Under the pieces are notes generated by a model that had not been told where the DNA came from, searched no databases, and saw only the letters and a list, made by a program, of their open reading frames with translations. Shown here piece by piece: positions 5,372-34,267 of a stretch of DNA of 64,000 nt. Where the stretch lies: the NCBI GenBank assembly GCA_021081985.1, contig GCA_021081985.1_3639.1; one strand, given 5' to 3'. The stretch comes from a phage. Position numbers and translations under genes: made by a program. Position 1 is the stretch's first letter; the number at the start of each line of letters is the position of its first letter.

Positions 5372-5430
5372 ATATTCTCCACCACATTTGCAAACTAGGG
5401 GACAAATAGCCCCCTATACATCATGCAAAC

Positions 5431-5459
5431 ATAATATGTATTTTTATTAAATTTGTCAA
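5431..5459 (-). promoter_or_regulatory. sigma70-like promoter (TTGACA-17-TATTAT) on minus strand
   Basis: Minus-strand reading TTGACAaatttaataaaaatacaTATTAT; -35 overlaps the stop of the upstream gene. Confidence 0.45.
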
Positions 5460-21128: not shown

Positions 21129-21566
21129 TCACTGTCGCTCTAACAAATCTTCTGCTGGATAAGCATACAGCATGTATTCCCAACCACGATGGTAATGTCT
21201 GTGTTGCCAGTTGATTAATTTTAGACACACAATGTTCACCACGTTCCTGTCCCCATGGATAAAAACACAAGTCTCAAGGATTGACTTTCCAAACTCAACA
21301 TGACTGTCAAGATACAGTTTTGTGTTGTATCTTTTTTCAGCATCCAGCATGATCTGTTTCAAGGCCAGAAATGCCTCGCAACACACAGATTTTTCATCAG
21401 AAATCATTTTGATATTCAAGCATTCACCCCCACACAGGCAACCACGCAAATCGTGTCTGATCACCACAACACAATCGGTTTGAAACAAACCTGTTTGACA
21501 CACAACAGGCATCGTCGTAGTGTCATGCCTAAACACAGACAGATATGATACGACGAAGATCCCCAC
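21129..21566 (-). CDS. Cys/His-rich hypothetical protein (first gene of the minus-strand block)
   Basis: 145-aa ORF; several Cys and an HRHYH stretch. Confidence 0.3.
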   Translation of the reverse strand: MGIFVVSYLSVFRHDTTTMPVVCQTGLFQTDCVVVIRHDLRGCLCGGECLNIKMISDEKSVCCEAFLALKQIMLDAEKRYNTKLYLDSHVEFGKSILETCVFIHGDRNVVNIVCLKLINWQHRHYHRGWEYMLYAYPAEDLLERQ

Positions 21567-22122
21567 ACAGAGTCACATAGTGACTTGTGACAACCCGAAT
21601 CCATGATTGAGATAAACACACAGAGACAAACCTGTAGGGTTTGTTGATGTGGGTTTATCTCAGAATGGCTCATGAGGGTTAGATGATCACAAGCTATCAG
21701 CGCAGTGAGCATCTTACACACTCACGTATTGCCTGAAGAGTCTCATCGACTCATGCTTTCAGGCAAAACACTATGAACTCTATGATTCGAAATCATCGAA
21801 CCATACGATTCGACTCAATCGAATCATATCAACAAAAATATTTAAAATCAAGTCTTGACATTCTTCAAGACTTAATGTATTTTAAATAAATTTTATATAA
21901 TATATTATTATATATAATACGTAGTATTATATTATATTAAATTATATTATATAATTTATATTATATTAGATCATATTAAATAGATCATAGTATTATAATA
22001 CGTAGTATTATATTTAATAGATCTTATAAGTTAGTTTAATTTGATCAGTTAGTATTGTGTCCCCAAAACGGGGACATACCCATGTCCCTGAAATGGGGAC
22101 ATATGGGAGGGGTTGACATTGT
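21567..22122. promoter_or_regulatory. divergent intergenic control region (AT-rich repeats, palindromes, promoter-like boxes)
   Basis: 556 bp non-coding between opposed gene blocks; IR gagataaac..gtttatctc (about 21610-21662), IR tgcctgaa..ttcaggca (about 21731-21766), gattcga/cgaatcat repeats, IR aagtcttga..tcaagactt with TTGACA (21850-21873), AT-rich attatat repeats (21880-22050), paired GTCCC..GGGAC hairpins (22058-22102), TTGACA at 22113-22118. Confidence 0.45.
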
Positions 22123-22548
22123 GTGGGGTTATGGGTAGCATTCTCGGTGTTGGATTACACACCGGAGTTTGCCTTGAAATCTAATGTTGGGGGTTTCCAT
22201 GTAAATCCGAAAGCTGGGTCATACATCGCTGTCCCGACAGAGTGGGTTTTTGATGAACGGTTATCACCAAGCGATCTGCAAAGATTGATACGCTTGTTGT
22301 GGAGATACGAGTATTTCAAGAATCTGAACCCTCTGGGTGGGGAACTGGTATTCTTTCCGTCACAACAATCCTTGTGTGGCCTGTTGGGGTGGAATGAAAA
22401 CTCACGAACCAAAGTGTCTGAATTTCTGTCTCGGATGGAGAGCTTTGGTTATATCAGGCGTGTTAGATCAGGATTTCAGGATTCTGATGGTAACGTGAAA
22501 CCAAGAAATTATATTATCGTCAATCGTATCAGAGGGGATAAATCATGA
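22123..22548 (+). CDS. putative winged-helix DNA-binding protein (start uncertain)
   Basis: 141-aa ORF from GTG; LIRLLWRYEYF...GYIRRVR helix-rich segment; track start lies inside promoter-like sequence so a downstream TTG near 22174 may be the real start. Confidence 0.3.
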   Translation: MGLWVAFSVLDYTPEFALKSNVGGFHVNPKAGSYIAVPTEWVFDERLSPSDLQRLIRLLWRYEYFKNLNPLGGELVFFPSQQSLCGLLGWNENSRTKVSEFLSRMESFGYIRRVRSGFQDSDGNVKPRNYIIVNRIRGDKS

Positions 22549-23418: not shown

Positions 23419-25134
23419 ATGCTTCACAAAGAAAGTCCATTGCTGTTTGCAGATTTTTATAAACCAAGTCACATCTCGATGTACGACAAACGTTCACAGT
23501 TTGTTCAAGACAACATGACACCACGCAATGCGAAACACTTTGTACACTTTGCAGATGATGACCATCGTGTAATGTTTGCTGGTCTTCAGGGATTTATCAA
23601 GTGGTTCCTGATTGACATGTTTAATAATAATTTCTTTGCTTTACCGAAAGAAAAGGCGATTCAGGATTACAAAGAGATTTGTGATTTGAGCATTGGGAAG
23701 GATGCTGTTGAAACTTGGGGTTTTGAGAGATTGCATGATCTTGGATATCTCCCAATTGAAATTAGAGCTTTGCCTGAAGGAACTCTTGTTCCTGTTCAGG
23801 TTCCTATGTTCACGATTCAGAACACGCACCCTGATTTTTACTGGCTGCCAAACTTCCTTGAGAGCGTGATCTCCTCGGAGACTTGGAAGACAATTACCAC
23901 GGCAACGACTTTCTGGCAATATCGTAAACTATCAGAACTGTGGGCAAAGAAAACATGTGATAACAACGATCACGTTCCTTTCCAGAACCATTGTTTTGCA
24001 TACCGTGGTGAAGCTGGAACACATGACGCAGCACAGAGCGAATTTGGGCAACTGATTAGCTCAATGGGCACAGATACAATTCCAGCGATTGTTTACGCAA
24101 ATCGCTATTACAACATGAAAGGTCGCTTTGTTGCTGGGTCTATTCCCGCATCTGAGCATAGCGTAGCGACAACGAACATTGGTTTTATTGTTGAGCGTAT
24201 CCAGCAGGAAAATCCTGACATGTCGCTTGCTGAAGCACGTTTTCGTGCTGAAGTTGAGTTCTTAAAGCGTTATGCAACAGAGATTTTTCCGTCAGGCTAT
24301 GCTTCATACGTCGCAGACAGCTATGATTTTTGGGCAATCATTACACAAGCAGCCAAAATCCTGAAAGATGAGATTATGTCTCGTGATGGCAAGCTGGTCT
24401 TCCGACCGGACAGTGGGATCCCAGAGCACATCATTGCTGGCTATCGTGTGTGCTCTCAGGAAGAATGGGCAACGGGACAGTGCTGTGATATGGATGCTGT
24501 GCTGTTTAAAAATGGCAAATATGTCACTCTGTACGAGATGTCCAGAGACACTTCTTGGATGCGAGATTCGGAAGGCAACCTCGTAGATTGGAAATCTTTG
24601 ACAGGTGATGAATTTACAAATTATCTTACCAAAGAGGAGGTTAAGGGTGCTGTACAATGCTTGTGGGAAATCTTTGGTGGTAGTGTAAACTCTTTGGGTT
24701 ACAAAGTTCTTGATAGCCATGTTGGTTTAATCTACGGAGACTCTATCACAATCTCTCGTGCTAAAGAGATCTTTGAGCGCCTTGAAGAACGAGGCTTTGC
24801 TTCCAGCAACATTGTGTTTGGTGTAGGATCTTATACAACGCAATATACAACCCGTGATTCTCTTGGGATGGCTGTAAAAGCTACTGGTGCTGTGATTGAT
24901 GGCAGACAAGTAATGGTTGTAAAAGAGCCTAAGACTGATCTTGGGAAGAAATCTGCGAAAGGTTTTGTTAAAGTTATTCGTGGTGATGATGGTGAGTTGA
25001 AGCTGGTAGATAATCTTGGTATTAATCAGGTATCTGACCCTGACAACGAGCTTAGAACAGTTTTTGTTAATGGTAAGCTGCTTGTGGATGAGGATCTTGA
25101 AGAAATTCGTCAAAGAGCTTTGTCACAGCTTTAG
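23419..25134 (+). CDS. nicotinamide phosphoribosyltransferase (NAMPT/NadV) family protein
   Basis: 571 aa; N-terminal LLFADFYKPSHISMY and overall NAMPT-like pattern; GGAGGG RBS. Confidence 0.8.
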   Translation: MLHKESPLLFADFYKPSHISMYDKRSQFVQDNMTPRNAKHFVHFADDDHRVMFAGLQGFIKWFLIDMFNNNFFALPKEKAIQDYKEICDLSIGKDAVETWGFERLHDLGYLPIEIRALPEGTLVPVQVPMFTIQNTHPDFYWLPNFLESVISSETWKTITTATTFWQYRKLSELWAKKTCDNNDHVPFQNHCFAYRGEAGTHDAAQSEFGQLISSMGTDTIPAIVYANRYYNMKGRFVAGSIPASEHSVATTNIGFIVERIQQENPDMSLAEARFRAEVEFLKRYATEIFPSGYASYVADSYDFWAIITQAAKILKDEIMSRDGKLVFRPDSGIPEHIIAGYRVCSQEEWATGQCCDMDAVLFKNGKYVTLYEMSRDTSWMRDSEGNLVDWKSLTGDEFTNYLTKEEVKGAVQCLWEIFGGSVNSLGYKVLDSHVGLIYGDSITISRAKEIFERLEERGFASSNIVFGVGSYTTQYTTRDSLGMAVKATGAVIDGRQVMVVKEPKTDLGKKSAKGFVKVIRGDDGELKLVDNLGINQVSDPDNELRTVFVNGKLLVDEDLEEIRQRALSQL

Positions 25135-25395: not shown

Positions 25396-25463
25396 TTGAC
25401 AAAAATAAACACCACTGATAAGATCTAATAACAAGATAAAAATAAAGTTAGTGGTGATTTGTT

Positions 25464-25995: not shown

Positions 25996-26024
25996 TTGAC
26001 AATGTAGATCATACAGGATAACAT
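25996..26024 (+). promoter_or_regulatory. sigma70-like promoter (TTGACA-17-TAACAT) upstream of first tRNA
   Basis: cTTGACAatgtagatcatacaggaTAACAT about 22 nt before the tRNA 5' end. Confidence 0.4.
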
Positions 26025-26045: not shown

Positions 26046-26121
26046 GGCCCCTTAGCTCAGTGGTTAGAGCAGGTGACTCATAATCGCTTGGTCGCTGGTT
26101 AAAGTCCAGCAGGGGCCACCA
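26046..26121 (+). tRNA. tRNA-Met (anticodon CAT; could also be Ile2 or initiator)
   Basis: Manual cloverleaf: acceptor GGCCCCT/AGGGGCC, D-arm GCTC..GAGC, anticodon loop cTCATaa, T-arm GCTGG..CCAGC, encoded CCA. Confidence 0.75.
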
Positions 26122-26173
26122 AATGTGGCACACGAAATAAACTAGGTTTATTGTTTTCGGAGGAGAAAACTTA

Positions 26174-26497
26174 ATGGCTAAGAAACAGTCTGCTAAAAAG
26201 GTATCAGCTATCGAGGCGATCAAGCAACCTTTTCAGTTTGAATCAAAATCCACGCAGACACATTCTGCACCGCACGATGTGCGTCTTGGTGGCAAAACGC
26301 AAACTGTAGCAGTTCTGAAAAAACGCAAAGATGAAGACGGTAATACTGAAATGTATTATGAATCTGTGTCTCGTGTCATTGGTGGTGAAGTGATTTCTGC
26401 TTCCTATCGTATCCGTACTGGGAAAACAAAGCGTGAACGAGAAGTGAAACAGAAAACAAGCACTCCTGTAGGAAACGTTAAGAAAACTAAAAAATAA
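26174..26497 (+). CDS. hypothetical basic protein
   Basis: 107 aa, Lys-rich; GGAGGAG RBS. Confidence 0.35.
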   Translation: MAKKQSAKKVSAIEAIKQPFQFESKSTQTHSAPHDVRLGGKTQTVAVLKKRKDEDGNTEMYYESVSRVIGGEVISASYRIRTGKTKREREVKQKTSTPVGNVKKTKK

Positions 26498-26573
26498 TTT
26501 ACTGACGAGAGTGCCACCGTGAGCCAGCGTCATTAAACAAAGGGAATCACGGACATTCAGGAGGGTTGAGATT

Positions 26574-26765
26574 ATGATAGGATCTTTGCTTAAGATTGCA
26601 AGCGATGTAACAACAACGGCTGTTGAAGTGACTGCTGCGGTAACAACTCCGTTTGTTGATTTAGCATCAGATGCTATAGCAGCAGCAGACGAGATGATTT
26701 TGTCACCGACATCTGATCTTGTCCAAGATCTTTGTGATTCTATAAAAGATGCTGTAAAAGATTAA
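26574..26765 (+). CDS. hypothetical small acidic protein
   Basis: 63 aa; AGGAGGG RBS. Confidence 0.3.
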   Translation: MIGSLLKIASDVTTTAVEVTAAVTTPFVDLASDAIAAADEMILSPTSDLVQDLCDSIKDAVKD

Positions 26766-26773
26766 AATTTTTC

Positions 26774-26802
26774 TTGACATAGTTTTTGTTTTTCTGTATA
26801 GT
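26774..26802 (+). promoter_or_regulatory. sigma70-like promoter (TTGACA-17-TATAGT)
   Basis: TTGACAtagtttttgtttttctgTATAGT upstream of the ORF at 26839. Confidence 0.5.
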
Positions 26803-26838
26803 TACTTTATCAAAGCTAATTTACATAGGAGAGATTGA

Positions 26839-27486
26839 ATGTCTACTAAGATTTCCGTAACTCGTGCACTTGCTTCTATCTCTAAGATTGAAGATAAGAT
26901 CAATAAGCGCATTTATAACCTTGAATGTATTAAGATTGCAAAAGGAACTGAGAATAATTGTAAGATTCCTGGTTATATCGGCTCTGTTGATGATTTTAAG
27001 AAATCTGCGATCAACGACTATCAAAGTCTGCAAGACCTCTTGGCAGTTCGCGATGAACTGAAGGCAAAAATTGTCAAGTCTAATGCTGAGACAATTGTCA
27101 AAATTGGTAAGGTGTCTATGACAGTTGCTGAGGCAATCGAACGCAAACGGACGATTTGCTTTAAACAAGAGTTGTTAAACAAACTTTGTGCACAGCGTGC
27201 TTCTGCACAGCTTCTTCTGGCAAAAGAAGAAAAATCTCTGGAAGATAAACTTGAAAATGCCAGAGCGCCATATATCCAACGTGATAAAGCGCCAGATGCA
27301 GAGCAGATTAAGACTGTGGAAGCTCCCATTCGAATGATGAACACACCATCGGTTGTGGATCCTCTTGAACTGGCTTCTAAGATTCGTTCTCTTGAAGAAG
27401 AGATTGAAGATTTCTTGTCTAACGTTGATTTTGCGTTGTCTGAGTCAAACGCTAAGACAGAAATTGAGATTGAGCACTCTCTCTAA
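26839..27486 (+). CDS. hypothetical coiled-coil protein
   Basis: 215 aa; heptad-like charged stretches; AGGAGAG RBS. Confidence 0.4.
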   Translation: MSTKISVTRALASISKIEDKINKRIYNLECIKIAKGTENNCKIPGYIGSVDDFKKSAINDYQSLQDLLAVRDELKAKIVKSNAETIVKIGKVSMTVAEAIERKRTICFKQELLNKLCAQRASAQLLLAKEEKSLEDKLENARAPYIQRDKAPDAEQIKTVEAPIRMMNTPSVVDPLELASKIRSLEEEIEDFLSNVDFALSESNAKTEIEIEHSL

Positions 27487-27520
27487 AAGGCTCTGATAAT
27501 ATCATTATCGTTCCTTTGTT

Positions 27521-27733
27521 TTGAAATTTAAAACATTGCTTTTGATTAACGAAGTTTACATCATCTTGCCTCCTGGGGATTGGAGGTTAAATATTCCCCA
27601 CCATGTATCGTATATGTATGAGGATAATACAGAACATAGATGCAGCGAGGCACACGAAGATGCTTTGTTGTTTCCACTAAGTAAAAGTTCATACAATAAA
27701 GGTCAATGGTTAAATGTGAAAGATGAAACTTGA
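27521..27733 (+). CDS. hypothetical protein
   Basis: 70-aa ORF. Confidence 0.25.
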   Translation: MKFKTLLLINEVYIILPPGDWRLNIPHHVSYMYEDNTEHRCSEAHEDALLFPLSKSSYNKGQWLNVKDET

Positions 27734-27851
27734 AAGTTGACTCTTGAAAGATAAAATTTCGTTTATCATCTGAAATCCTTGACACAGGTTATGGCTCACA
27801 AGATATGGTCTGTAAAGCCTCAAGGCTGTTAATCGGAAGCAATGTCTTATT

Positions 27852-27926
27852 GCTCGTATAGCTCAACGGTAGAGCACCTGCCTTGTAAGCAGGGGGTTGC
27901 AGGTTCGAAACCTGCTGCGAGCACCA
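27852..27926 (+). tRNA. tRNA-Thr (anticodon TGT)
   Basis: Acceptor GCTCGTA/TGCGAGC, D-arm GCTC..GAGC, loop cTTGTaa, T-arm GCAGG-TTCGAAA-CCTGC, CCA encoded. Confidence 0.75.
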
Positions 27927-27928
27927 AT

Positions 27929-28025
27929 GCTGGGTAAGCCCTTTGGCAAGGGCGAGGATTTATAATCCTGAAAATAGACGGGCTAGCCGTTGAATACATA
28001 GGTGGTTCGATTCCATCACCCAGCC
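27929..28025 (+). ncRNA. atypical tRNA-like element (97 nt; intact acceptor, D- and T-arms, aberrant anticodon region)
   Basis: Acceptor GCTGGGT/ACCCAGC, D-arm GCCC..GGGC, T-arm GGTGG-TTCGATT-CCATC, but about 46 nt between D- and T-arms with two hairpins and no encoded CCA. Confidence 0.3.
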
Positions 28026-28226
28026 ACAAGTTTGTTTTATAGTGTATTAGCTTATATTATTCGATATAAATGCCTGATCAGCATTTGTTGTGAATGAGGC
28101 ATACAATGCGTGAGAAAGCTATCGGTGCGCAACGTTGATTTCAAACGTAGTCATGCTCGTAGAGCACCAACTGTGGAAGTTGGAGGGTGGTTGAGTAACC
28201 ATACACTATAAAGCATTCTTTAAAAT

Positions 28227-28311
28227 GGGCGGTGTCCCCACACAAGTCTTCTAAACTTGTACTTAAAAAGTGGGAAGGAAGTGAGAGGTTCGATTCCTCC
28301 ACCGTCTACCA
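28227..28311 (+). ncRNA. atypical tRNA-like element (T-arm, acceptor and CTTCTAA anticodon-like hairpin but no D-arm)
   Basis: GGTTCGATTCC T-loop, acceptor GGGCGGT/ACCGTCT plus ACCA, hairpin CAAGT-cttctaa-ACTTG; does not fold as a canonical cloverleaf by hand. Confidence 0.3.
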
Positions 28312-28387
28312 GATTAACCCCAACTTGAGAATCGTCAGCGCGGCTCGTAAGACCCACTCTATAGGTTCTCTACCTGGGGTGCTTATT

Positions 28388-28464
28388 GCACGGTTGCCGG
28401 AATTTGGTTACGGGTCTGTCTGCAAAACGGATATATGTCGGTTCAAGTCCGACACCGTGCTCCA
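28388..28464 (+). tRNA. tRNA-Cys (anticodon GCA)
   Basis: Acceptor GCACGGT/ACCGTGC, loop cTGCAaa, T-arm GTCGG-TTCAAGT-CCGAC, CCA encoded. Confidence 0.7.
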
Positions 28465-28501
28465 AACTTTCAATTTCTTGGCAAATATGTTAAAATACCA
28501 C

Positions 28502-28530
28502 TTGACAGATATGTTTTTATTTGATAATAT
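28502..28530 (+). promoter_or_regulatory. sigma70-like promoter (TTGACA-17-TAATAT)
   Basis: TTGACAgatatgtttttatttgaTAATAT upstream of ATG 28551. Confidence 0.45.
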
Positions 28531-28550
28531 CATTAAGTGGGGTTTTTAAA

Positions 28551-28898
28551 ATGGCTACTAAGCAGCTTACAAAACGTAGAAGAGGAAAAGGTCGTCCTCT
28601 GAAAGAGGAATCTAATGCAATTCAGTTAGAGAAAAATATCCTAGATTTGAAAACGAATCTGATTGCAATGATTCCTGAAGCTCATCAGGTTCTTAGGGAT
28701 TTGATGAAGAATGTGAATACAAAAGACAATATCAGAGAAAATATCGCTCGTTATGTTATTGAGAAAGGTGAGCAGATGCTTTCTGATTACTTTGATGAGG
28801 AAAACGAAGAGTTACTCGAAAAAGATAACTCAGAAAAAGCGCCTATTAAGGCAGCCAAACCATTCTCGACGGATATTGTTCAATTCAAACAAGGTTAA
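28551..28898 (+). CDS. hypothetical protein (start at internal ATG of track ORF 28521..28898)
   Basis: MATKQLTKRRRGKGRP...; promoter-like element immediately upstream. Confidence 0.35.
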   Translation: MATKQLTKRRRGKGRPLKEESNAIQLEKNILDLKTNLIAMIPEAHQVLRDLMKNVNTKDNIRENIARYVIEKGEQMLSDYFDEENEELLEKDNSEKAPIKAAKPFSTDIVQFKQG

Positions 28899-28899
28899 T

Positions 28900-28989
28900 G
28901 TGTCGTTAGACCGTAGGGGTAGCGGGGGAGACTGTAAATCTCCTGTCTCGAAAGGGACTCGGGTAGTTCGACTCTATCACGGCACACCA
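28900..28989 (+). tRNA. tRNA-Tyr (anticodon GTA), long variable arm
   Basis: Acceptor GTGTCGT/ACGGCAC, loop cTGTAaa, variable-arm hairpin GTCTC-gaaa-GGGAC, T-arm GGTAG-TTCGACT-CTATC, CCA encoded. Confidence 0.7.
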
Positions 28990-29057
28990 ACTAAATCTGT
29001 ACTGGCTTTGATGTGTGACGATACCCTCCAATCGTGGTTGTTGGGTCAGTACAGTTT

Positions 29058-29133
29058 GGGAGTGTAGATCAGTTAGTAGATCGCTCGACCGATAATCGAG
29101 AGGACGTAGGGGCAGAGCCTACCACTCCCACCA
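29058..29133 (+). tRNA. tRNA-Ile-like (anticodon GAT) with non-canonical T-loop and C33; possibly degenerate
   Basis: Acceptor GGGAGTG/CACTCCC, D-arm GATC..GATC, loop ccGATaa, T-arm GTAGG-GGCAGAG-CCTAC. Confidence 0.4.
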
Positions 29134-29138
29134 AATAT

Positions 29139-29213
29139 GCATCCATAGTTTAATTGGGAAAACTACAGCCTTCCAAGCTGAAGTCGAGGGTTCGATGCCC
29201 TCTGGATGCTCCA
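29139..29213 (+). tRNA. tRNA-Gly (anticodon TCC)
   Basis: Acceptor GCATCCA/TGGATGC, D-arm GTTT..AAAC, loop cTTCCaa, T-arm GAGGG-TTCGATG-CCCTC, CCA encoded. Confidence 0.65.
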
Positions 29214-29338
29214 GTTAAAAGATGTCAATGAAATCCGCTTGGGTCAACTGAAGACCGTAACAAATTCCATGGGGTTGTGTTTGCGGTCCAACCCTAGACA
29301 TCTTCTATCTTTAGTAGAAGGCTTTAATACGGACGAGT

Positions 29339-29569
29339 ATGATGGTTTCTAAATTAATCATAACAAGGCATCATAATGCTAAAGAAATAGAGATTGTGAA
29401 TGCTGCTGGCACTCTTGTGCTAAAAGTTGGTAAAGACTGTCCTTTTGAATTGTGCCAGAAGGAACTTTTAAGTTTGTGCGGTTTCAGGTTTAAACAGATT
29501 ATCTTTGAAAATGCTTTTCAATATTCAGACTTAAACCAGTACATTATATCTAGGCTTGATCCTGCATGA
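29339..29569 (+). CDS. hypothetical protein embedded in tRNA array
   Basis: 76-aa ORF. Confidence 0.3.
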   Translation: MMVSKLIITRHHNAKEIEIVNAAGTLVLKVGKDCPFELCQKELLSLCGFRFKQIIFENAFQYSDLNQYIISRLDPA

Positions 29570-30123
29570 GATACTTGAAATATTTATCTTGGATCCTGTT
29601 AGCACCTCTTGATCCAATTATGTCGGCTCTCTGTGTTATTCTGGCTCCTTTTGTTGTTCCGTTCTATAATGAGAAGACAGGGCATCTACCCTATATTTTC
29701 AGGTGGATGGAAACATATGATAATCCTATAGACGGTGACAGAGGACACATAGAGAGATGGGAAGAAGTCCGTAAAATAGGAAGTTTTGGTGTTTACCTAC
29801 AACGAGTTGCTTGGTTGTGGAGAAATAAAGCCTACAATTTTTCCTATCACGTACTTGGACGTGAAATCGCATCTGTGACAAAGTGGAAAGGAAACATCCA
29901 TGTAAGCTCTGATGTGGAGGATAATCAACAAGGCTATTTGTTGATGTGGAATGACAATGCGTGGGGTGTATTCGCGTTTGTCCCGTCTTTTAGATTGTTT
30001 GGAAAACAATTTTACTGGCGAATTTATGTCGGTTGGAAACTGAAGAGTGTGGTTCCTGAAGACAGAGCTTTTTCAAGAGAGAGGGTGATGTTGGCATTTT
30101 TCATAAGTCCTTTCCGAAAATAG
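29566..30123 (+). CDS. hypothetical protein (hydrophobic N-terminus, Trp-rich) embedded in tRNA array
   Basis: 185-aa ORF, ATGA overlap with upstream ORF. Confidence 0.4.
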   Translation: MRYLKYLSWILLAPLDPIMSALCVILAPFVVPFYNEKTGHLPYIFRWMETYDNPIDGDRGHIERWEEVRKIGSFGVYLQRVAWLWRNKAYNFSYHVLGREIASVTKWKGNIHVSSDVEDNQQGYLLMWNDNAWGVFAFVPSFRLFGKQFYWRIYVGWKLKSVVPEDRAFSRERVMLAFFISPFRK

Positions 30124-30129
30124 TTTTTA

Positions 30130-30211
30130 ATGAGAGTAGCGTAACTTCACTGGGTGAAGGCTGGCCTCCAAAACCAGTGACTAAGAGGTTCGATTCCTCA
30201 CTCTCGTGCCA
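30130..30211 (+). tRNA. tRNA-like gene, possible tRNA-Trp (anticodon CCA), irregular D-region
   Basis: Acceptor ATGAGAG/CTCTCGT, loop cTCCAaa, T-loop TTCGATT, CCA encoded; D-region forms a tight 6-bp hairpin instead of a normal D-arm. Confidence 0.35.
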
Positions 30212-30212
30212 A

Positions 30213-30288
30213 AGGGGATTAGCATAGTGGCCTAATGCAACGGGCTTTGACCCCGTGATCGGTTGTTCGAATCAACCATCCCCTGCCA
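30213..30288 (+). tRNA. tRNA-Gln (anticodon TTG)
   Basis: Acceptor AGGGGAT/ATCCCCT, D-arm GCAT..ATGC, loop cTTTGac, T-arm GGTTG-TTCGAAT-CAACC, CCA. Confidence 0.75.
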
Positions 30289-30297
30289 AGTTAAAAC

Positions 30298-30387
30298 GGA
30301 GAAGCAAATCGATTGGCGACGAAACCACATTGGAAATGTGCTGACTGGTAAAACGGCTTGAGAGTTCGATTCTCTCCTTCTCCACCA
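30298..30387 (+). tRNA. tRNA-Ser (anticodon GGA), type II
   Basis: Acceptor GGAGAAG/CTTCTCC, loop tTGGAaa, T-arm GAGAG-TTCGATT-CTCTC, CCA; variable arm pairs weakly. Confidence 0.5.
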
Positions 30388-30401
30388 GTTTTTAAGGATT
30401 T

Positions 30402-31145
30402 ATGTATGCACTCTCCCCAAGAAAAAAAAATGGAAAACAGATATTTAATTTGTTGAAAAGCGGAAAAGGCTTCTCAAACCCGCTTCAATCAGGTCTTTCT
30501 CTGGTTGGTGGTAAAGTAAGTAGTCTATCTTCTTTATCTTCCTCTATTTCTTCGGTAACTAACCCAGCTATAAAGGCTCAATTAGCTGCCGCAGGTTTGA
30601 CAACTGGCGTTTTATCAAATTTTACTTCGTCTCTTGGTTCTGTTACAAGCACGACAAAAACGCTTGTTGATTATGGTCAGAAATCTGTTGAAGAGTTCTC
30701 CCAAAGAATGCACGCAGCGAGTAATTATATGAGTACTCTGAGCAGAATGGGAGAAAAGACAAGTTGTTCAATATTTAGTGACGTTATGTCTGTAGCCACT
30801 GATTTAGGTAAGAAAGCTATGGATGCCGTTAATTCCGCGATGGATGCGGTGAACGATGTTATGTCTCAATTGCAAGATGCAATAAATAAGGGTTTGAATA
30901 CAATATCTAGTTTGGCGAGTAAAGCTGTCTCAGCGATAAACAAAGGGATCCAGAAAATGTCTGAGTATGCTAGCCAAGTGACAAAGATGATTGAAGATGA
31001 AGCAAAGAAGTTGGCAGACTACTTAAAGACAAGTGCTGAAGGATTTCTCGCAGATATCCTACCTGATTGGTTTAACGATTCTTGTAAATCTGGTATAGTT
31101 GACCAGATTGCTACACCAGAGATGAAAGAAGTTCTTAAAAAGTAA
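30402..31145 (+). CDS. hypothetical Ser/Thr-rich helical protein embedded in tRNA array
   Basis: 247-aa ORF between tRNA genes; start may be internal. Confidence 0.4.
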   Translation: MYALSPRKKNGKQIFNLLKSGKGFSNPLQSGLSLVGGKVSSLSSLSSSISSVTNPAIKAQLAAAGLTTGVLSNFTSSLGSVTSTTKTLVDYGQKSVEEFSQRMHAASNYMSTLSRMGEKTSCSIFSDVMSVATDLGKKAMDAVNSAMDAVNDVMSQLQDAINKGLNTISSLASKAVSAINKGIQKMSEYASQVTKMIEDEAKKLADYLKTSAEGFLADILPDWFNDSCKSGIVDQIATPEMKEVLKK

Positions 31146-31147
31146 TT

Positions 31148-31241
31148 GGAAGATTAACCCTAATTTGGTAAGGGGTCTCCCTGCTAAGGAGATAGTAACC
31201 CAGAAATGGGTGTGCCAGTTCAAGTCTGGCATCTTCCTCCA
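31148..31241 (+). tRNA. tRNA-Ser (anticodon GCT), type II
   Basis: Acceptor GGAAGAT/ATCTTCC, loop cTGCTaa, variable-arm hairpin ACCCA-gaaa-TGGGT, T-arm GCCAG-TTCAAGT-CTGGC, CCA. Confidence 0.65.
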
Positions 31242-31320
31242 CTGTATGTCAAGGCTCAGATTTCTTCGGACCTGGGCGTTCGCCTTTGTTGGGTGTATAT
31301 TCTCGGCAGAGGCTATCTTT

Positions 31321-31409
31321 GGAGGCTGGGGTGCATGGTGCACAAGCTGGTTTGAACCCAGTCCCGCTGTAGAGATATGGTGACAGTTCGATTCTGTCAG
31401 CCTCCTCCA
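31321..31409 (+). tRNA. tRNA-Ser (anticodon TGA), type II
   Basis: Acceptor GGAGGCT/AGCCTCC, loop tTTGAac, T-arm GACAG-TTCGATT-CTGTC, CCA. Confidence 0.6.
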
Positions 31410-31632
31410 AGTTATCTTTAATGTAGCTTGTTTAGTTGCTTGGTGTGATTTTTCGGTGGATGGCTGCAACCATCTTATCGATACCCCAGAGCAGTCCGCT
31501 CTTTACTGGCGTAAGCCAAACACTTATGATGGTCATGTAATCGTAATCTATCATTAGTGTGCTCTCCCTGGAGAGCTGTTGCGTATAGCTAATTATTGTG
31601 TGAGTAATTAGCTATTTTAAAGATAATTTGAC

Positions 31633-31709
31633 GGATCTGTAGCCAAATGGTTTAAGGCACTCGACTTTTAATCGAGAGATTGTTGGTTCGAATCCAACCA
31701 GATCCACCA
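31633..31709 (+). tRNA. tRNA-Lys (anticodon TTT)
   Basis: Acceptor GGATCTG/CAGATCC, D-arm GCC..GGC, loop cTTTTaa, T-arm GTTGG-TTCGAAT-CCAAC, CCA. Confidence 0.8.
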
Positions 31710-31718
31710 AAATATTCA

Positions 31719-31809
31719 GGTTCTTTGACCGAGTGGTCGATGGTGACGGCCTGTTAAGCCGTTGGGAGGAATCTCCCCACCGAAGGTTCGAATCCTTCAG
31801 GAACCGCCA
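31719..31809 (+). tRNA. tRNA with anticodon GTT (Asn codons) but type-II body and G73 discriminator
   Basis: Acceptor GGTTCTT/AGGAACC, D-arm ACCG..TGGT, anticodon stem ACGGC/GCCGT with loop cTGTTaa, variable-arm hairpin GGGAG-gaat-CTCCC, T-arm GAAGG-TTCGAAT-CCTTC, disc G, CCA. Confidence 0.5.
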
Positions 31810-31893
31810 ATTCTTGACTTAATCAAGTCACAGATATCACCTAGCCAGCGATACCAGTTAGTAGATTCTGGGACAATTAAAATCTACATTTCT

Positions 31894-31971
31894 CTGTCCG
31901 TAGCGCAGCTTGGGTAGCGCGGGTCACTTGGGATGATCAGGTCGTTGGTTCAAATCCAACCGGACAGACCA
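31894..31971 (+). tRNA. tRNA-Pro (anticodon TGG)
   Basis: Acceptor CTGTCCG/CGGACAG, D-arm GCGC..GCGC, loop cTTGGga, T-arm GTTGG-TTCAAAT-CCAAC, CCA. Confidence 0.75.
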
Positions 31972-32013
31972 ATAAACATATACATATCAAAGCAGAAATG
32001 TACAGAGGATACC

Positions 32014-32205
32014 ATGTTAACAGTTAAAGTCGTATCTCCAAATGATGAACAAATTTTTTGTGGGAAAATTGTTGGGTATTGTGCTCATCAAAAGTCTATA
32101 GCTATTTCAGGTATTGACCAAAAAGTGTTTTTGTCTGAGGATCAGACCGCTTATGTGATCAATGCCAATGGAAAAACTATTTCTGTGTATCGTGGAAAAC
32201 CGTAA
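32014..32205 (+). CDS. hypothetical small protein (internal ATG of track ORF 31933..32205, which overlaps tRNA-Pro)
   Basis: MLTVKVVSPNDEQ...; AGGA RBS 5 nt upstream. Confidence 0.3.
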   Translation: MLTVKVVSPNDEQIFCGKIVGYCAHQKSIAISGIDQKVFLSEDQTAYVINANGKTISVYRGKP

Positions 32206-32219
32206 CTCTTAATATAAAT

Positions 32220-32296
32220 GGGCGATTGATGGAATTGGTATACATGTCAGGCTTAGAACCTGAATTTTGGGGGTTCGAGTCCCTCATCGCCTACCA
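32220..32296 (+). tRNA. tRNA with anticodon TAG (Leu codon CUA) but short variable arm (type-I body)
   Basis: Acceptor GGGCGAT/ATCGCCT, anticodon stem TCAGG/CCTGA with loop cTTAGaa, 5-nt variable loop, T-arm GGGGG-TTCGAGT-CCCTC, A73, CCA. Confidence 0.5.
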
Positions 32297-32301
32297 ATTA
32301 T

Positions 32302-32377
32302 GTGACGGTAACTCAGTTGGTAGAGTGCCTTGCTGAAGACTAGGTGGTCACAGGTTCGAATCCTGTCCGTCACACCA
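32302..32377 (+). tRNA. tRNA-Phe (anticodon GAA)
   Basis: Acceptor GTGACGG/CCGTCAC, D-arm ACTC..GAGT, loop cTGAAga, T-arm ACAGG-TTCGAAT-CCTGT, CCA. Confidence 0.7.
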
Positions 32378-32392
32378 AACAGGAAATAGATT

Positions 32393-32623
32393 ATGCGAAG
32401 AAAATTGAAGAGTGCATATATCCAAAAAATAGAGACAGTTAGAAAATTTTGTGCTGGGTGGCCTCTTATTCTACTTATTGCCGATTCTAGGTATACTACT
32501 CAAGATGTGAAGAACTACAAGAAAGTAGATAAGTATTGTCGGACAAAGAAAGGAAGACTTGATGGTACTTATGAGATCCATTTTGGTCATCCACCTAGAA
32601 GGATTTCTCTTGGTAATAAATGA
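32393..32623 (+). CDS. hypothetical basic protein
   Basis: 76-aa ORF between tRNA genes; AGGA RBS. Confidence 0.35.
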   Translation: MRRKLKSAYIQKIETVRKFCAGWPLILLIADSRYTTQDVKNYKKVDKYCRTKKGRLDGTYEIHFGHPPRRISLGNK

Positions 32624-32627
32624 ACAT

Positions 32628-32703
32628 TGCGAGTTTGAAGTCTGGTGACTTCGCTGGTCTCATAAGCCAGTCCAGATTGGTTCGATCCCAATACTCGCAA
32701 CCA
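32628..32703 (+). tRNA. tRNA-Met/Ile2 (anticodon CAT), second CAT tRNA
   Basis: Acceptor TGCGAGT/ACTCGCA, D-arm GAAG..CTTC, loop cTCATaa, T-arm ATTGG-TTCGATC-CCAAT, CCA. Confidence 0.65.
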
Positions 32704-32834
32704 GAATTAAAGTGGACACTAAGGAAGGTCGTGGCTGAGTAAACGGTAAGACACTCTCGACATGTAAAGGTTCCTTCGCCACTTTTCTCAAATAACTATA
32801 ATAATAATCCAATCAATCTCCTCTCCTATGCCTA

Positions 32835-32860
32835 ACCCCGCCTCTTGCGGGGTTTTTCTT
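32835..32860 (+). terminator. intrinsic terminator closing the tRNA array
   Basis: AACCCCGCctcttGCGGGGTT followed by TTTTTCTTT. Confidence 0.6.
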
Positions 32861-32906
32861 TATGTGCTAGTCTTTACGCATCTTGTTTTGTACTTAAGGA
32901 TAGCTA

Positions 32907-34267
32907 AGATGTTGCATGTTTTCAAAAAAGAAGATTTTCAAAGAGAGTATGACATTTTGTGCTCTTTTATACCAAAAGGTGTTTATGATTTATTGTCAAA
33001 GCTGGATGTTAAGATAGCTGGCGGTGCAATAACCTCTTTGTTCTCTAATAGTAAAGTCAACGATCTTGATTTGTATTTCCCATCTTGGGAAAGCCTTGAG
33101 ATATTCATTGCGTACATGATGGATAAAAGACTCTTGTCAGGGAAATATGATTTGTCTAAGAAAACAAATGGCTGGGCGTCAGATCAAAAAATAGCATTTA
33201 GGCATTTCTATAAACTTGATCACGGTGATCCAGCATTTTCAAATTTTACAGATCCTCTTTCTATAGGTAGAGAATATGACAATGAATACGATTATTTATG
33301 TGATGAAGATGATAATTTGCCAACCATGAAAAAGGTTGGTGTGACAGATAAGAGTGTGATGTTTTACTTTGGACAAGAGCCTGTCTTTCAATGTGTGGCT
33401 GTGGATGTGTTCAAAACAACAGAAGACATCTTTAGCAAATTTGATTTTACAATAAATATGGGTGCTTTTAACTTCAAAGATGGTGTGTGGGAATTTAATA
33501 GCAATTTCTTAAAACATATTGCTCAAAGAGTTTTGGTTGTAAATCATAAAACTGAATACCCGATTATGTCACTTTTGAGATCTGAAAAATACAAATCTCG
33601 TGGCTATACAATTTCGAAAAAAGAGACAATGAAACTGGCTATGACCATTGCTAACCTTCAGATAGAAGGTTGGGAATCGGCAAAGTCACATCTTAGCGGG
33701 ATGTACGGAATGAAACTGTCAGATATTTTTGATGAGACAAAACAGTTTTCACTTGATTCTTTGGTTGAGTGCCTAGACAGATTAGAATCTTGTTGCCAGC
33801 AGGTAGACAAAAATGTTACCCCTGTGCAACCGTTGCCGTTTAATGATGTATCTAAAGTTAATATGTTTAATATTTTTCAAAGATTAAGAAAAGCAACAGG
33901 CAGGAAATACTTTACAAAACTATATGGGGTTTGTCCTGCTGAAGTTTTCTATCTTATGATGCCAACAAAAGATACACATTATGTTGGGCTTTACAAAGAA
34001 GATATAGCAAATAATTTTCCCACTCTCAGACTTTATGTTGATGAGAAGAAGGCAAGAGAATATTACGAATACCTGTGTGAGTGTGGTAAGACAGATGGTT
34101 ATGGATGCCTAATGTATAAACCTGGGGCAGTTCTCTTAGATGTCTCAATAAGTGATCCATCTAAGATGCAATACGATATCATAACTGATGAGATTAATAT
34201 TTATGAAAACAGAAAAACAACATTGAAAATTGAAAACATTATTGTGTGTGATGGGGATATATCATGA
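32907..34267 (+). CDS. class II nucleotidyltransferase, CCA-adding enzyme / poly(A) polymerase-like (start at internal ATG; track ORF 32828 spans the terminator)
   Basis: KIAGGAITSLFSNSKVNDLDLYF (GG..x10..DxD pol-beta NTase motif) and FDFTINMGA (DxTIN-like motif) resemble tRNA nucleotidyltransferase head-domain motifs; follows the tRNA array. Confidence 0.5.

Follow-up and report, generated by a model that had tools for sequence, protein, structure and literature searches.

The DNA analysed here is a stretch of 64,000 nucleotides (nt) from phage contig GCA_021081985.1_3639.1 (hereafter the window), in which 19 tRNA genes lie on the plus strand within 6.7 kb, at positions 26046-32703, as established by combining ARAGORN, Rfam and comparative evidence. 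About seven members, i.e. about one third of the array, are non-canonical, and each departure from the cloverleaf recurs in distant phages. We regard it as probable that this is a Vequintavirinae array supplementing the host tRNA pool for the codons favoured by the phage, with non-canonical decoders among its members, and of the explanations considered below this is the best one. The closest relative is Escherichia phage Av-05 (Avunavirus, Vequintavirinae), with 96.4% identity over 89% of the region, and phage TH18 and its relatives are likewise 96% identical to it; judged by sequence, the source would be a lytic Vequintavirinae phage, close kin of Av-05.

At default settings, ARAGORN called 14 tRNA genes, all on the plus strand and between 26046 and 32377, namely Met CAT, Thr TGT, Cys GCA, Tyr GTA, Gly TCC, Gln TTG, Ser GGA, Ser GCT, Ser TGA, Lys TTT, Asn GTT, Pro TGG, Leu TAG and Phe GAA. 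Rfam at its curated thresholds returned 13 tRNA matches, two of them (RF00005) not called by ARAGORN: a tRNA-Ile (GAT) at 29058-29130 (53.4 bits) and a 97-nt tRNA at 27929-28025 (33 bits). Taking as bacterial-type any gene that is called by ARAGORN at default settings or scores at least 29 bits, the gathering threshold of RF00005, 16 of the 19 genes qualify, the exceptions being the UCU, CCA and second CAU genes. These surfaced below threshold, in E-value mode, at 28226-28308 (TCT, 29.6 bits), 30134-30205 (CCA, 34.4 bits) and 32629-32698 (CAT, 37.4 bits), each with tRNA-Sec (RF01852) as the best model and below its 47-bit cut-off, and two of the three were recovered by ARAGORN only at a lowered threshold. 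A standard cloverleaf (7-base-pair (bp) acceptor, 5-bp T stem, D hairpin, and 5-bp anticodon stem with a 7-nt loop) is formed by all genes except these same three, each of which has homologues in other phages whose helices covary. Single-sequence folding gave z-scores of -1.4 to -3.6 for the non-canonical genes; the comparative evidence is the stronger support for them. A tRNA-Sec should score at least 47 bits and show a UCA anticodon, an 8/5 (or 9/4) acceptor branch and a long variable arm; with 29.6 to 37.4 bits and anticodons other than UCA, the UCU, CCA and CAU genes are not tRNA-Sec. No further Rfam family was detected in the intergenic stretches (E <= 1), apart from reverse-strand matches to plastid untranslated-region models that overlap the tRNAs.

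A sequence-only reading of this DNA had described a large phage array of about 17 tRNA genes, most with an encoded CCA end. The array is borne out by ARAGORN, Rfam and comparative evidence alike, all 17 of the listed anticodons are present, and 15 of the 17 manual calls are backed by the standard tools. The second CAT gene and the "possible CCA" gene are recognisable from comparative evidence alone, and are rejected at default settings because they are not standard cloverleaves. The count had to be raised to 19, since the UAU (27929-28025) and UCU (28227-28311) genes had been overlooked. Direct reading of the sequence finds the CCA end encoded, as proposed, in 18 of the 19 genes, all except 27929-28025. 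The genes of the array, all on the plus strand, are as follows.

26046-26121, plus strand: tRNA with anticodon CAT (Met or Ile2 type), 76 nt, T loop TTAAAGT, CCA encoded, 66.8 bits
27852-27926, plus strand: tRNA-Thr (TGT), canonical; ARAGORN and Rfam
27929-28025, plus strand: 97-nt tRNA with anticodon UAU, no encoded CCA; Rfam, 33 bits
28227-28311, plus strand: tRNA(UCU) without D hairpin, 85 nt, A73-CCA; comparative evidence
28388-28464, plus strand: tRNA-Cys (GCA); ARAGORN and Rfam
28900-28989, plus strand: tRNA-Tyr (GTA), class II, 90 nt; ARAGORN
29058-29133, plus strand: tRNA-Ile (GAT); Rfam, 53.4 bits, missed by ARAGORN
29139-29213, plus strand: tRNA-Gly (TCC); ARAGORN and Rfam
30130-30211, plus strand: tRNA(CCA), Trp-like, 82 nt; Rfam below threshold, ARAGORN at low threshold, comparative evidence
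30213-30288, plus strand: tRNA-Gln (TTG); ARAGORN and Rfam
30298-30387, plus strand: tRNA-Ser (GGA), class II; ARAGORN
31148-31241, plus strand: tRNA-Ser (GCT), class II; ARAGORN and Rfam
31321-31409, plus strand: tRNA-Ser (TGA), class II; ARAGORN
31633-31709, plus strand: tRNA-Lys (TTT), canonical; ARAGORN and Rfam, 77.3 bits
31719-31809, plus strand: tRNA with the Asn anticodon GTT and a long variable arm, 91 nt; ARAGORN and Rfam, 57 bits
31894-31971, plus strand: tRNA-Pro (TGG); ARAGORN and Rfam
32220-32296, plus strand: tRNA-Leu (TAG) without long variable arm, 77 nt; ARAGORN and Rfam
32302-32377, plus strand: tRNA-Phe (GAA); ARAGORN and Rfam
32628-32703, plus strand: tRNA(CAT) with Sec-like D arm, 76 nt; Rfam below threshold, ARAGORN at low threshold, comparative evidence

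Codon usage was compared between 65 mechanically called open reading frames (ORFs) of the window and 52 annotated genes of a 49-kb stretch of E. coli K-12. The highest phage-to-host ratios were found for AGA (9.0x), AGG (5.3x), AUA (5.1x) and ACA (4.3x), followed by GGA (3.1x), CUA (2.6x), UAU (2.4x) and UCA (2.2x), and all eight of these codons are read by a tRNA of the array. With the UAU, UCU and CCA genes included, the mean log2 ratio was +0.39 for the codons served by the array and -0.42 for the others (Mann-Whitney p = 0.0035). Codon supplementation fits this bias, which implies that the odd genes are working decoders. Several points weigh against this conclusion. When only the 16 tool-approved tRNAs are counted, the association is weak (p = 0.07), so that the agreement between anticodons and codon usage, a check already envisaged by the sequence-only reading, holds with the non-canonical genes and is doubtful without them. 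The host table derives from a single K-12 segment rich in ribosomal protein genes, and the phage ORFs were mechanically called. The three most enriched codons hinge on putative decoders, and the anticodon hairpin of the 97-nt gene varies from genus to genus in both the size and the sequence of its loop, unusual behaviour for a decoder. Finally, the abnormal architectures of so many members are not explained by codon supplementation.

We infer from the gene content, codon bias and expression signals (detailed below) that several sigma-70 promoters would drive polycistronic transcripts mixing the 19 tRNA genes with nine small ORFs, a single terminator closing the unit. The host ribonuclease P (RNase P) and 3' exonucleases would then free the tRNAs, nearly all of them already bearing CCA. 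Once charged, these could supplement the host pool for codons favoured by the phage, with its 39% GC, over E. coli, chiefly AGA/AGG, AUA, ACA, GGA, CUA, UCA and the U-ending codons of two-codon boxes, and keep the synthesis of phage proteins fast late in infection. The odd genes would represent phage-borne families of non-canonical tRNAs acting as decoders rather than relics.

The gene with anticodon UCU departs from the cloverleaf in its D region. Its 5' half consists of one strand of an 8-bp acceptor, a 2-nt linker, the segment CCCAC (nt 11-15) and a 6-bp anticodon stem closed by the loop CUUCUAA; in the 3' half follow ACTT, an A-rich linker, GTGGG, AAGG, AAGT, a 4-bp T stem with a normal T loop, and A73-CCA. 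The helices CCCAC:GTGGG and ACTT:AAGT cross, i.e. the strand at the D position pairs into the loop of a short variable arm to form a pseudoknot. BLAST found similar sequences in 345 phage records (304 from Vibrio phages, 32 from Acinetobacter phages, some from Aeromonas phages, and others); among the matches listed, the loci are unannotated or overlap a hypothetical protein only. The three Acinetobacter records listed are genomes of ~166 kb, and one of these phages, Abraxas, is a member of the Straboviridae. A pattern scan of IMG/VR added ~30 contigs. An alignment was made of 22 distinct sequences, the T arm and the GGANNTGAGAGG segment being preset in the search pattern. Standard pairs are formed in 99.3% of the cells, and double-sided changes occur in 17 of the 25 pairs, including all eight acceptor pairs; the T stem has 4 bp. 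The covariation score of 0.684 compares with 0.181 for shuffled alignments, none of 500 of which reached it, and, for slid partners, with no more than 0.095. In the pseudoknot helix pairing reaches 100% and three of the five pairs covary, and the variable-arm stem covaries as well (one pair is CG in 11 sequences and GC in 11).

As regards its identity, the anticodon is UCU in 20 of the 22 sequences and CCU in two, and 21 end in N73-CCA. The determinants of arginyl-tRNA synthetase (ArgRS) are A20, which is the main one, C35, U or G at 36 and A or G at 73 (Giege and Eriani 2023). In the family C35 and U36 occur in 22 of 22 sequences and N73 is A or G in 19 of 22; an invariant A follows the invariant GG, fixed by the pattern for the IMG/VR members yet also present in four sequences found by BLAST. 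This A sits where ArgRS expects A20, and its occupancy of the corresponding pocket is putative. The same slot of the array holds in TH18 an ordinary 77-nt tRNA-Arg(UCU) between near-identical flanks, while the window and Av-05 have the rewired form. Because this appears to be a clean replacement of one cassette by the other in a single slot, the rewired and canonical tRNA-Arg(UCU) look functionally interchangeable. A reading of the UCU gene as a decayed pseudogene, suggested by apparent indels against TH18, was discarded in view of the whole-cassette swap and of the large covarying family. For some members of the family ARAGORN reports a tRNA-Arg with a mispaired acceptor stem, and this fold is not the true one.

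The UCU-family pattern was also run against representatives of 185,579 bacterial and archaeal species. Of the 107 loci obtained, only that of Vibrio injensis, where the copy is probably located in a prophage, passed a stricter filter on architecture as a true member. Among the matches inspected by eye, almost all are ordinary tRNA-Val(GAC) genes of Candidatus Saccharibacteria, matched by chance. Within loci L049-L155, these genes are near-invariant over the ~45 matches in metagenome-assembled genomes displayed, and share the variable-loop and T-arm sequence of the UCU family. Elsewhere, the rewired gene of Acinetobacter phage Abraxas stands in a T4-like tRNA cluster with an annotated "tRNA-Pyl", near which are a putative peptidyl-tRNA hydrolase/RF2-like ORF and an RNA 2',3'-cyclic phosphodiesterase. 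On one IMG/VR contig (L019:~6600-7500) it lies less than 400 nt from an ARAGORN tRNA with anticodon TTA, a would-be ochre suppressor.

The Trp-like CCA gene has an 8-bp acceptor followed by a 7-nt linker and a 6-bp hairpin with a TGG loop, which replaces the normal D arm; 3' of this hairpin come the CCA anticodon loop, a second 7-nt linker, a 4-bp T stem and G73-CCA. The copy of Salmonella phage KE22 has the same plan, its hairpin covaries (CTTCAC/GTGAAG versus TTGCAG/CTGCAA), and it is missed by ARAGORN too. In both copies, as in the UCU family, the acceptor branch totals 12 bp and is split 8/4, one of the two splits (8/4 or 9/3) that mark allo-tRNAs and 8/4 tRNAs. The Trp slot occurs with three body plans in all: the 8/4 form (window, KE22), a canonical gene (Cronobacter phage EspYZU15), and an 87-nt tRNA-Trp(CCA) with a variable-arm hairpin, GGGG-AAA-CCCC, in an Erwinia phage (L003:10318-10404).

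In the second CAU gene the D and anticodon stems are both 6 bp long, the D loop is UGGU and nucleotide 26 is absent. Phages of Proteus, Serratia and Salmonella, as well as KVP40, have homologues of the same plan with covarying helices, and loci of the family include L005:8968-9043 and L157-L160. The determinants of the initiator formyltransferase are G2-C71, C3-G70, G4-C69, A73 and a purine11:pyrimidine24 pair (Giege and Eriani 2023). The acceptor of the window gene is initiator-like in all of G2-C71, C3-G70, G4-C69 and A73, and these features together with A11-U24 are invariant in the six aligned members of the family. Bacterial initiators further show a 1:72 mismatch and three consecutive G-C pairs next to the anticodon loop. 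A mismatch at 1:72 is found in three of the six (U-U in Proteus phage 1 and KVP40, A-A in Kamaji), the window having the U1-A72 pair; all three G-C pairs occur only in phage Arash, the window having G29-C41, G30-C40 and U31-G39. An initiator-like role of the family is possible, since the formyltransferase determinants are kept.

The 97-nt gene combines a standard acceptor, D arm and T arm with a ~30-nt variable region containing a hairpin, flanked by the invariant segments GAAAATAG and GAATACATAG. It is 94% identical in the rV5-like phages, where records label it tRNA-Lys, tRNA-OTHER or nothing; for the family as a whole, the GenBank label tRNA-??? occurs too. Across eight sequences of the family, four stems are 100% paired, with six compensatory pairs. 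The anticodon loop is UUUAUAA (UAU) in the window and Av-05, UUUUUAA (UUU) in rV5 and CAUCAAA in Erwinia phage, and Seunavirus has an 8-nt loop; among all members of the array, the role of this one is the least clear. Relatives of 97-105 nt, almost always adjoining a tRNA-Thr, were located at L002:6001-6099, L003:6001-6104, L004:6001-6105, L005:5208-5304 and L007:~5410-5520, and a pattern scan of IMG/VR found six loci only, all of the known types. Two ARAGORN readings, a "Tyr(ata) with an intron" obtained with the intron option and a four-base anticodon obtained at low threshold, were set aside as artefacts of forcing the standard model on this gene.

Three further genes are atypical in single elements. 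Asparaginyl-tRNA synthetase (AsnRS) recognises the GUU anticodon and G73. The GUU gene carries G73, the pairs G1-C72/G2-C71 and a 5-bp variable arm, GGGAG-GAAT-CTCCC, and its sequence meets the description of a putative class II tRNA with Asn identity features. The records of GAP31, 4MG, PVP-SE1 and a Salmonella jumbo phage list homologues, 85-91 nt in length, under the name tRNA-Asn, and the variable arm covaries among the window, Erwinia and Salmonella phages (GGGAG/CTCCC, GAGC/GCTC, GAGT/ACTC). The UAG gene has a Leu-type D loop, GAAUUGGUAUA, together with G1-U72 and A73; armless 77-nt tRNA-Leu(UAG) genes also exist in Seunavirus and in T5-like phages. The missing arm is consistent with the finding that the E. 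coli leucyl-tRNA synthetase does not need it (Giege and Eriani 2023). In the Ile GAU gene the T loop is the non-standard GGCAGAG, and KE22 has AGCGAAG there.

That the UCU, CCA, second CAU and 97-nt genes are decaying pseudogenes, only ~15 genes of the array being at work, might be supposed from the failure of odd elements at ARAGORN defaults and Rfam thresholds, from the deletion of the second CAU gene together with a neighbouring ORF in TH18, from the lack of conservation of the 97-nt anticodon hairpin, and from the KVP40 record, which annotates neighbouring genes as pseudo-tRNAs. We consider this improbable. Decay is contradicted because the helices covary: each of the four families is kept across distant phages with compensatory changes. 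Moreover, anticodon loops, T loops and CCA ends are intact, and the copies of the window and of Av-05 are 0-2 substitutions apart.

A different use of the extra arms would be recoding, in which these tRNAs, like allo-tRNAs and nematode nev-tRNAs, are charged according to their bodies, with Ser or Leu, and deliberately mistranslate AAY, AUA or AGA. Seryl-tRNA synthetase (SerRS) recognises a long variable arm whatever the anticodon, and the G73 and G1-C72/G2-C71 of the GUU gene are as in E. coli tRNA-Ser. In addition, allo-tRNAs with UAU and with AGA/AGG-reading anticodons insert serine (Mukai 2017, PMC5389517). Against this stands the heavy use of AAY, AUA and AGA by the phage, and therefore the cost of proteome-wide missense. 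The UCU gene has the ArgRS determinants C35, U36, mostly A/G73 and the invariant A after GG, and it is exchangeable with a normal tRNA-Arg in the TH18 slot; the GUU gene has all the AsnRS determinants, and the D arm is Asn-like in its relatives. Taken together, these features make recoding very improbable, the least credible of the alternatives.

An alternative that deserves more weight, although we still judge it unlikely, is counter-defence: the array would replace host tRNAs cut by PrrC, RloC, PARIS, retron effectors, or colicin-like or VapC-like enzymes, and the unusual bodies (class II Asn, rewired Arg, 8/4 Trp, CAU with its Sec-like D arm, armless Leu) would evade nucleases or phage-induced tRNA degradation without evading the synthetases. 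It is compatible with codon supplementation. Isoacceptors of Lys, Asn, Thr, Arg, Tyr and fMet are nuclease targets, and several of the deviant genes fall in these families. The non-canonical types are spread as cassettes over unrelated phages, and in 96%-identical genomes one slot alternates between canonical and rewired tRNA-Arg, a pattern typical of arms races. Other genera have an insertion in the D region of Lys(UUU), and a gene resembling a tRNA 3'-end nucleotidyltransferase adjoins the array. Defence systems that cleave tRNAs are amply documented, with acceptor stems, the loop or stem of the anticodon arm and perhaps D loops described as their cleavage sites. One phage-encoded tRNA is reported to neutralise PARIS (Burman 2024), and mutations in the anticodon loop are reported to let phage tRNAs escape defences directed at tRNA (van den Berg 2023). 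However, the Lys and Thr genes of the window are canonical, and the codon match alone suffices to explain the presence of the tRNAs. To our knowledge, no defence system selects on the shape of the D arm or variable arm for Arg(UCU), Trp or Leu, which also counts against it.

The tRNA genes are interspersed with nine ORFs encoding proteins of 63-247 amino acids (aa), all matching conserved phage protein families of unknown function, and the region contains three sigma-70-type promoters and an intrinsic terminator. The TTGACA boxes, interspersed ORFs and strong closing terminator of the sequence-only reading are thus all recovered.

25996-26024, plus strand: sigma-70-type promoter TTGACA-17-TAACAT, just 5' of the first tRNA
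26174-26497, plus strand: ORF of 107 aa, phrog_6662, function unknown
26574-26765, plus strand: ORF of 63 aa, phrog_9123, function unknown
26774-26802, plus strand: sigma-70-type promoter TTGACA-17-TATAGT, 11 of 12 consensus matches
26839-27486, plus strand: ORF of 215 aa, phrog_1491 (database label "tail fiber protein", doubtful)
28502-28530, plus strand: sigma-70-type promoter TTGACA-17-TAATAT, extended -10 TG
28551-28898, plus strand: ORF of 115 aa, phrog_3330
29339-29569, plus strand: ORF of 76 aa, phrog_14202
29566-30123, plus strand: ORF of 185 aa, DUF7338 / phrog_2143
30402-31145, plus strand: ORF of 247 aa, DUF7217 / phrog_2114
32014-32205, plus strand: ORF of 63 aa, phrog_3909
32393-32623, plus strand: ORF of 76 aa, phrog_7065
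32834-32861, plus strand: intrinsic terminator closing the array; strong terminator call at 32834-32854, 8-bp stem with 6 GC pairs, then a T run
32909-34267, plus strand: protein of 452 aa with the motif GGAITSLF...NDLDLYF, predicted fold like that of class II CCA-adding enzymes

A further perfect TTGACA with an acceptable -10 lies upstream of the array at 25396, and promoter-like sites number 30 in the region against 17.2 +/- 4.7 in shuffles. Between tRNA-Ser(GCT) and tRNA-Ser(TGA), a 12-bp hairpin with a T-rich tail (31282-31313) is a possible internal attenuator or processing site. The sign of the GC skew switches near 22 kb, where ORF orientation changes from minus to plus (~21500-22500), marking a boundary of divergent transcription. 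The layout might suggest that the tRNAs serve mainly as punctuation, RNase P and 3' trimming cutting early transcripts into small-ORF mRNAs as in mitochondria, with decoding as a secondary matter. ORFs and tRNAs are tightly joined at 28898/28900 (Tyr), 31145/31148 (Ser) and 32623/32628 (CAU), and one strong terminator serves 6.7 kb. Yet punctuation would conserve neither the anticodon loops nor their match to the codon bias, many tRNAs stand back to back with no ORF between them, and several promoters already subdivide the region. As the primary function we hold it to be improbable; as a side effect, punctuation may occur.

The gene following the terminator had been labelled NTase (nucleotidyltransferase) in the sequence-only reading, a label that has weak support in sequence and is sustained at the level of fold. 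The 452-aa protein matches phrog_1614 weakly (E 4e-5), and searches of Pfam, NCBIfam and the PDB gave no sequence match; in precomputed tables its family is PF26128, listed there without a name. Residues G38, G39, D52 and D54 are invariant in 49 homologues. Its AlphaFold model has a mean pLDDT (predicted local distance difference test) of 85, and the top 48 Foldseek matches are class II CCA-adding and A-adding enzymes, poly(A) polymerase and TENT5 proteins, the best being the tRNA-bound Thermotoga enzyme 5hc9_A (E 3.6e-7, TM score ~0.3). The protein thus resembles class II CCA-adding enzymes in its GG...DxD motif and in the head/neck fold of the top matches, and differs from them in that no sequence similarity is detectable and the TM score is only ~0.3. 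Judging from the predicted structure, it probably makes or repairs tRNA 3' ends beside the array.

The array as such is an ordinary, already sequenced feature of the Vequintavirinae. The order NAMPT gene, tRNA array with small ORFs, NTase-like gene, Rz/Rz1 spanins and large terminase is common to the window, Av-05, TH18, EspYZU15 and KE22; in Av-05 the flanks are ribose-phosphate pyrophosphokinase and nicotinamide phosphoribosyltransferase on one side, and a hypothetical protein, Rz-like spanins and large terminase on the other. In Erwinia phage pEa_SNUABM_56 the array is visible, but the 12-kb locus examined ends inside it, and rV5 has a short version with seven tRNA-like genes and without the NTase-like gene. 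The tRNA regions of Vequintavirinae (Av-05, TH18, PVP-SE1/Seunavirus, Henunavirus and rV5) share the small ORFs and the anticodon order Met, Thr, 97-nt gene, Arg UCU, Cys, Tyr, Ile, Gly, Trp, Gln, Ser (three genes), Lys, Asn, Pro, Leu UAG, Phe, Met. Array size varies, with 19 genes in the window against seven in rV5 and about 26-30 in Seunavirus (PVP-SE1), whose extra genes are Lys CUU, Leu UAA, Glu, His, Asp, Arg ACG, Ala and Val. In the stretches examined, the GenBank records of Av-05, TH18, EspYZU15 and KE22 annotate no tRNA of the array. Among the window, Av-05 and TH18, tRNA genes mostly differ by 0-1 substitutions (Lys by 4, Cys by up to 3, Met by 1-2 plus one gap), and the small ORFs at ~1.5-18% of sites (5-41 substitutions each).

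Several local differences and neighbours were noted. The DUF7217 ORF (30402-31145), absent from Av-05 and TH18, interrupts the spacing of two tRNA-Ser genes as an insertion of 733 nt; its protein is coiled-coil-like, with weak tape-measure and phasin-like matches. At the end of the array (window 32393-32703), TH18 shows a deletion that has removed the 76-aa ORF and all but the 3' part of the second CAU gene. The 200-nt spacer 28026-28225 is nearly invariant in the window, Av-05 and TH18, and neither a tRNA nor an Rfam family was detected in it; in other genera this slot is occupied by a tRNA-Leu(UAA). In Henunavirus and Seunavirus, ~10 extra nt separate the D arm of tRNA-Lys(UUU) from its anticodon arm, bringing the gene to 86-87 nt (L003:11581-11667, L004:8466-8551, L005:7629-7715); ARAGORN reads it with a four-base anticodon or as Phe. 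The NAMPT gene (window 23419-25134) lies directly 5' of the array and, with the pyrophosphokinase of Av-05, resembles an NAD-salvage module. In rV5, Sir2-like and RNA ligase 1 genes are close to the tRNAs.

As an array, this is a further instance of a known phage strategy; what stands out within it are the topology of the D arm in the UCU gene and the membership of several genes in recurrent, poorly annotated families of non-canonical phage tRNAs. No description of the UCU fold was found in the literature searched, which covered few subscription journals, nor any of a phage long-arm tRNA-Asn, of variable-arm or D-arm-lacking phage tRNAs, or of an unusual phage tRNA-Arg. We tentatively propose, while holding it to be somewhat less than an even chance, that the UCU gene represents an undescribed, functional, phage-borne tRNA-Arg architecture, of 8/4 type, with the D helix formed as a pseudoknot and GG-A replacing G18-G19-A20, which would decode AGA/AGG in hundreds of Escherichia, Vibrio, Acinetobacter and Aeromonas phages unseen by standard annotation; with the other odd genes it would form a parallel repertoire of re-engineered bodies, possibly escaping host nucleases. 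A tRNA keeping the dimensions of the L-shape with a rewired D helix would widen the known structural limits of bacterial tRNA and offer a natural scaffold for orthogonal tRNA engineering. Counts of tRNAs in phage genomes would also be underestimated: here the reader of AGA, the most phage-biased codon, is missed by ARAGORN and unannotated in most records listed, and that of AUA escapes ARAGORN under its defaults, clears the Rfam threshold by a small margin and carries varying annotations. Should the odd shapes be adaptations against defences that cleave tRNA, they would give a direct, testable handle on the arms race.

Among known systems, the tRNA region of T5/BF23 and the T4 cluster are organised as the window is, with many tRNAs interleaved with small early ORFs and sigma-70 promoters; the region of the T5-like phage Bf23 likewise has tRNAs, small ORFs and early promoters. 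The accepted role of these clusters is codon supplementation and, for the T5 tRNA-Lys, neutralisation of a defence system. T5 and T4 belong to a different phage family, and their DNA similarity to the window is limited to individual tRNAs; the rewired UCU gene and the 97-nt gene were not seen among the T5-like matches obtained. For the odd bodies, the nearest published description is that of 8/4 tRNA-Ser and tRNA-His in phages and of allo-tRNAs, which keep a Sec-like D hairpin; in allo-tRNAs, with their 35 anticodons, SerRS recognises the long helical variable arm (Mukai 2017, PMC5389517). The UCU and CCA genes share with them the 8-bp acceptor, the 4-bp T stem and the lengthened anticodon stem, and surfaced, as allo-tRNAs did, via the tRNA-Sec model. 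Unlike allo-tRNAs, the UCU family has no D hairpin, its variable arm has a stem of just 3-4 bp whose loop takes part in the pseudoknot, and its anticodon is fixed at UCU or CCU; the CCA gene differs in having no variable arm. The likeness to tRNA-Sec itself consists, for the UCU gene, in the 8-bp acceptor and 6-bp anticodon stem and, for the second CAU gene, in the 6-bp D stem with its UGGU loop, whereas the CAU and CCA genes lack the long variable arm of tRNA-Sec. The animal mitochondrial tRNA-Ser(AGY) works without a D hairpin, and the nev-tRNAs of nematodes carry an extra arm together with an anticodon not of Ser, Leu or Tyr, such as UAU. Both belong to unrelated lineages and translation systems and, compared with tRNA-Ser(AGY), the D helix of the UCU gene is not lost but rebuilt from another strand, in a tRNA that would work in E. 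coli with the standard factors.

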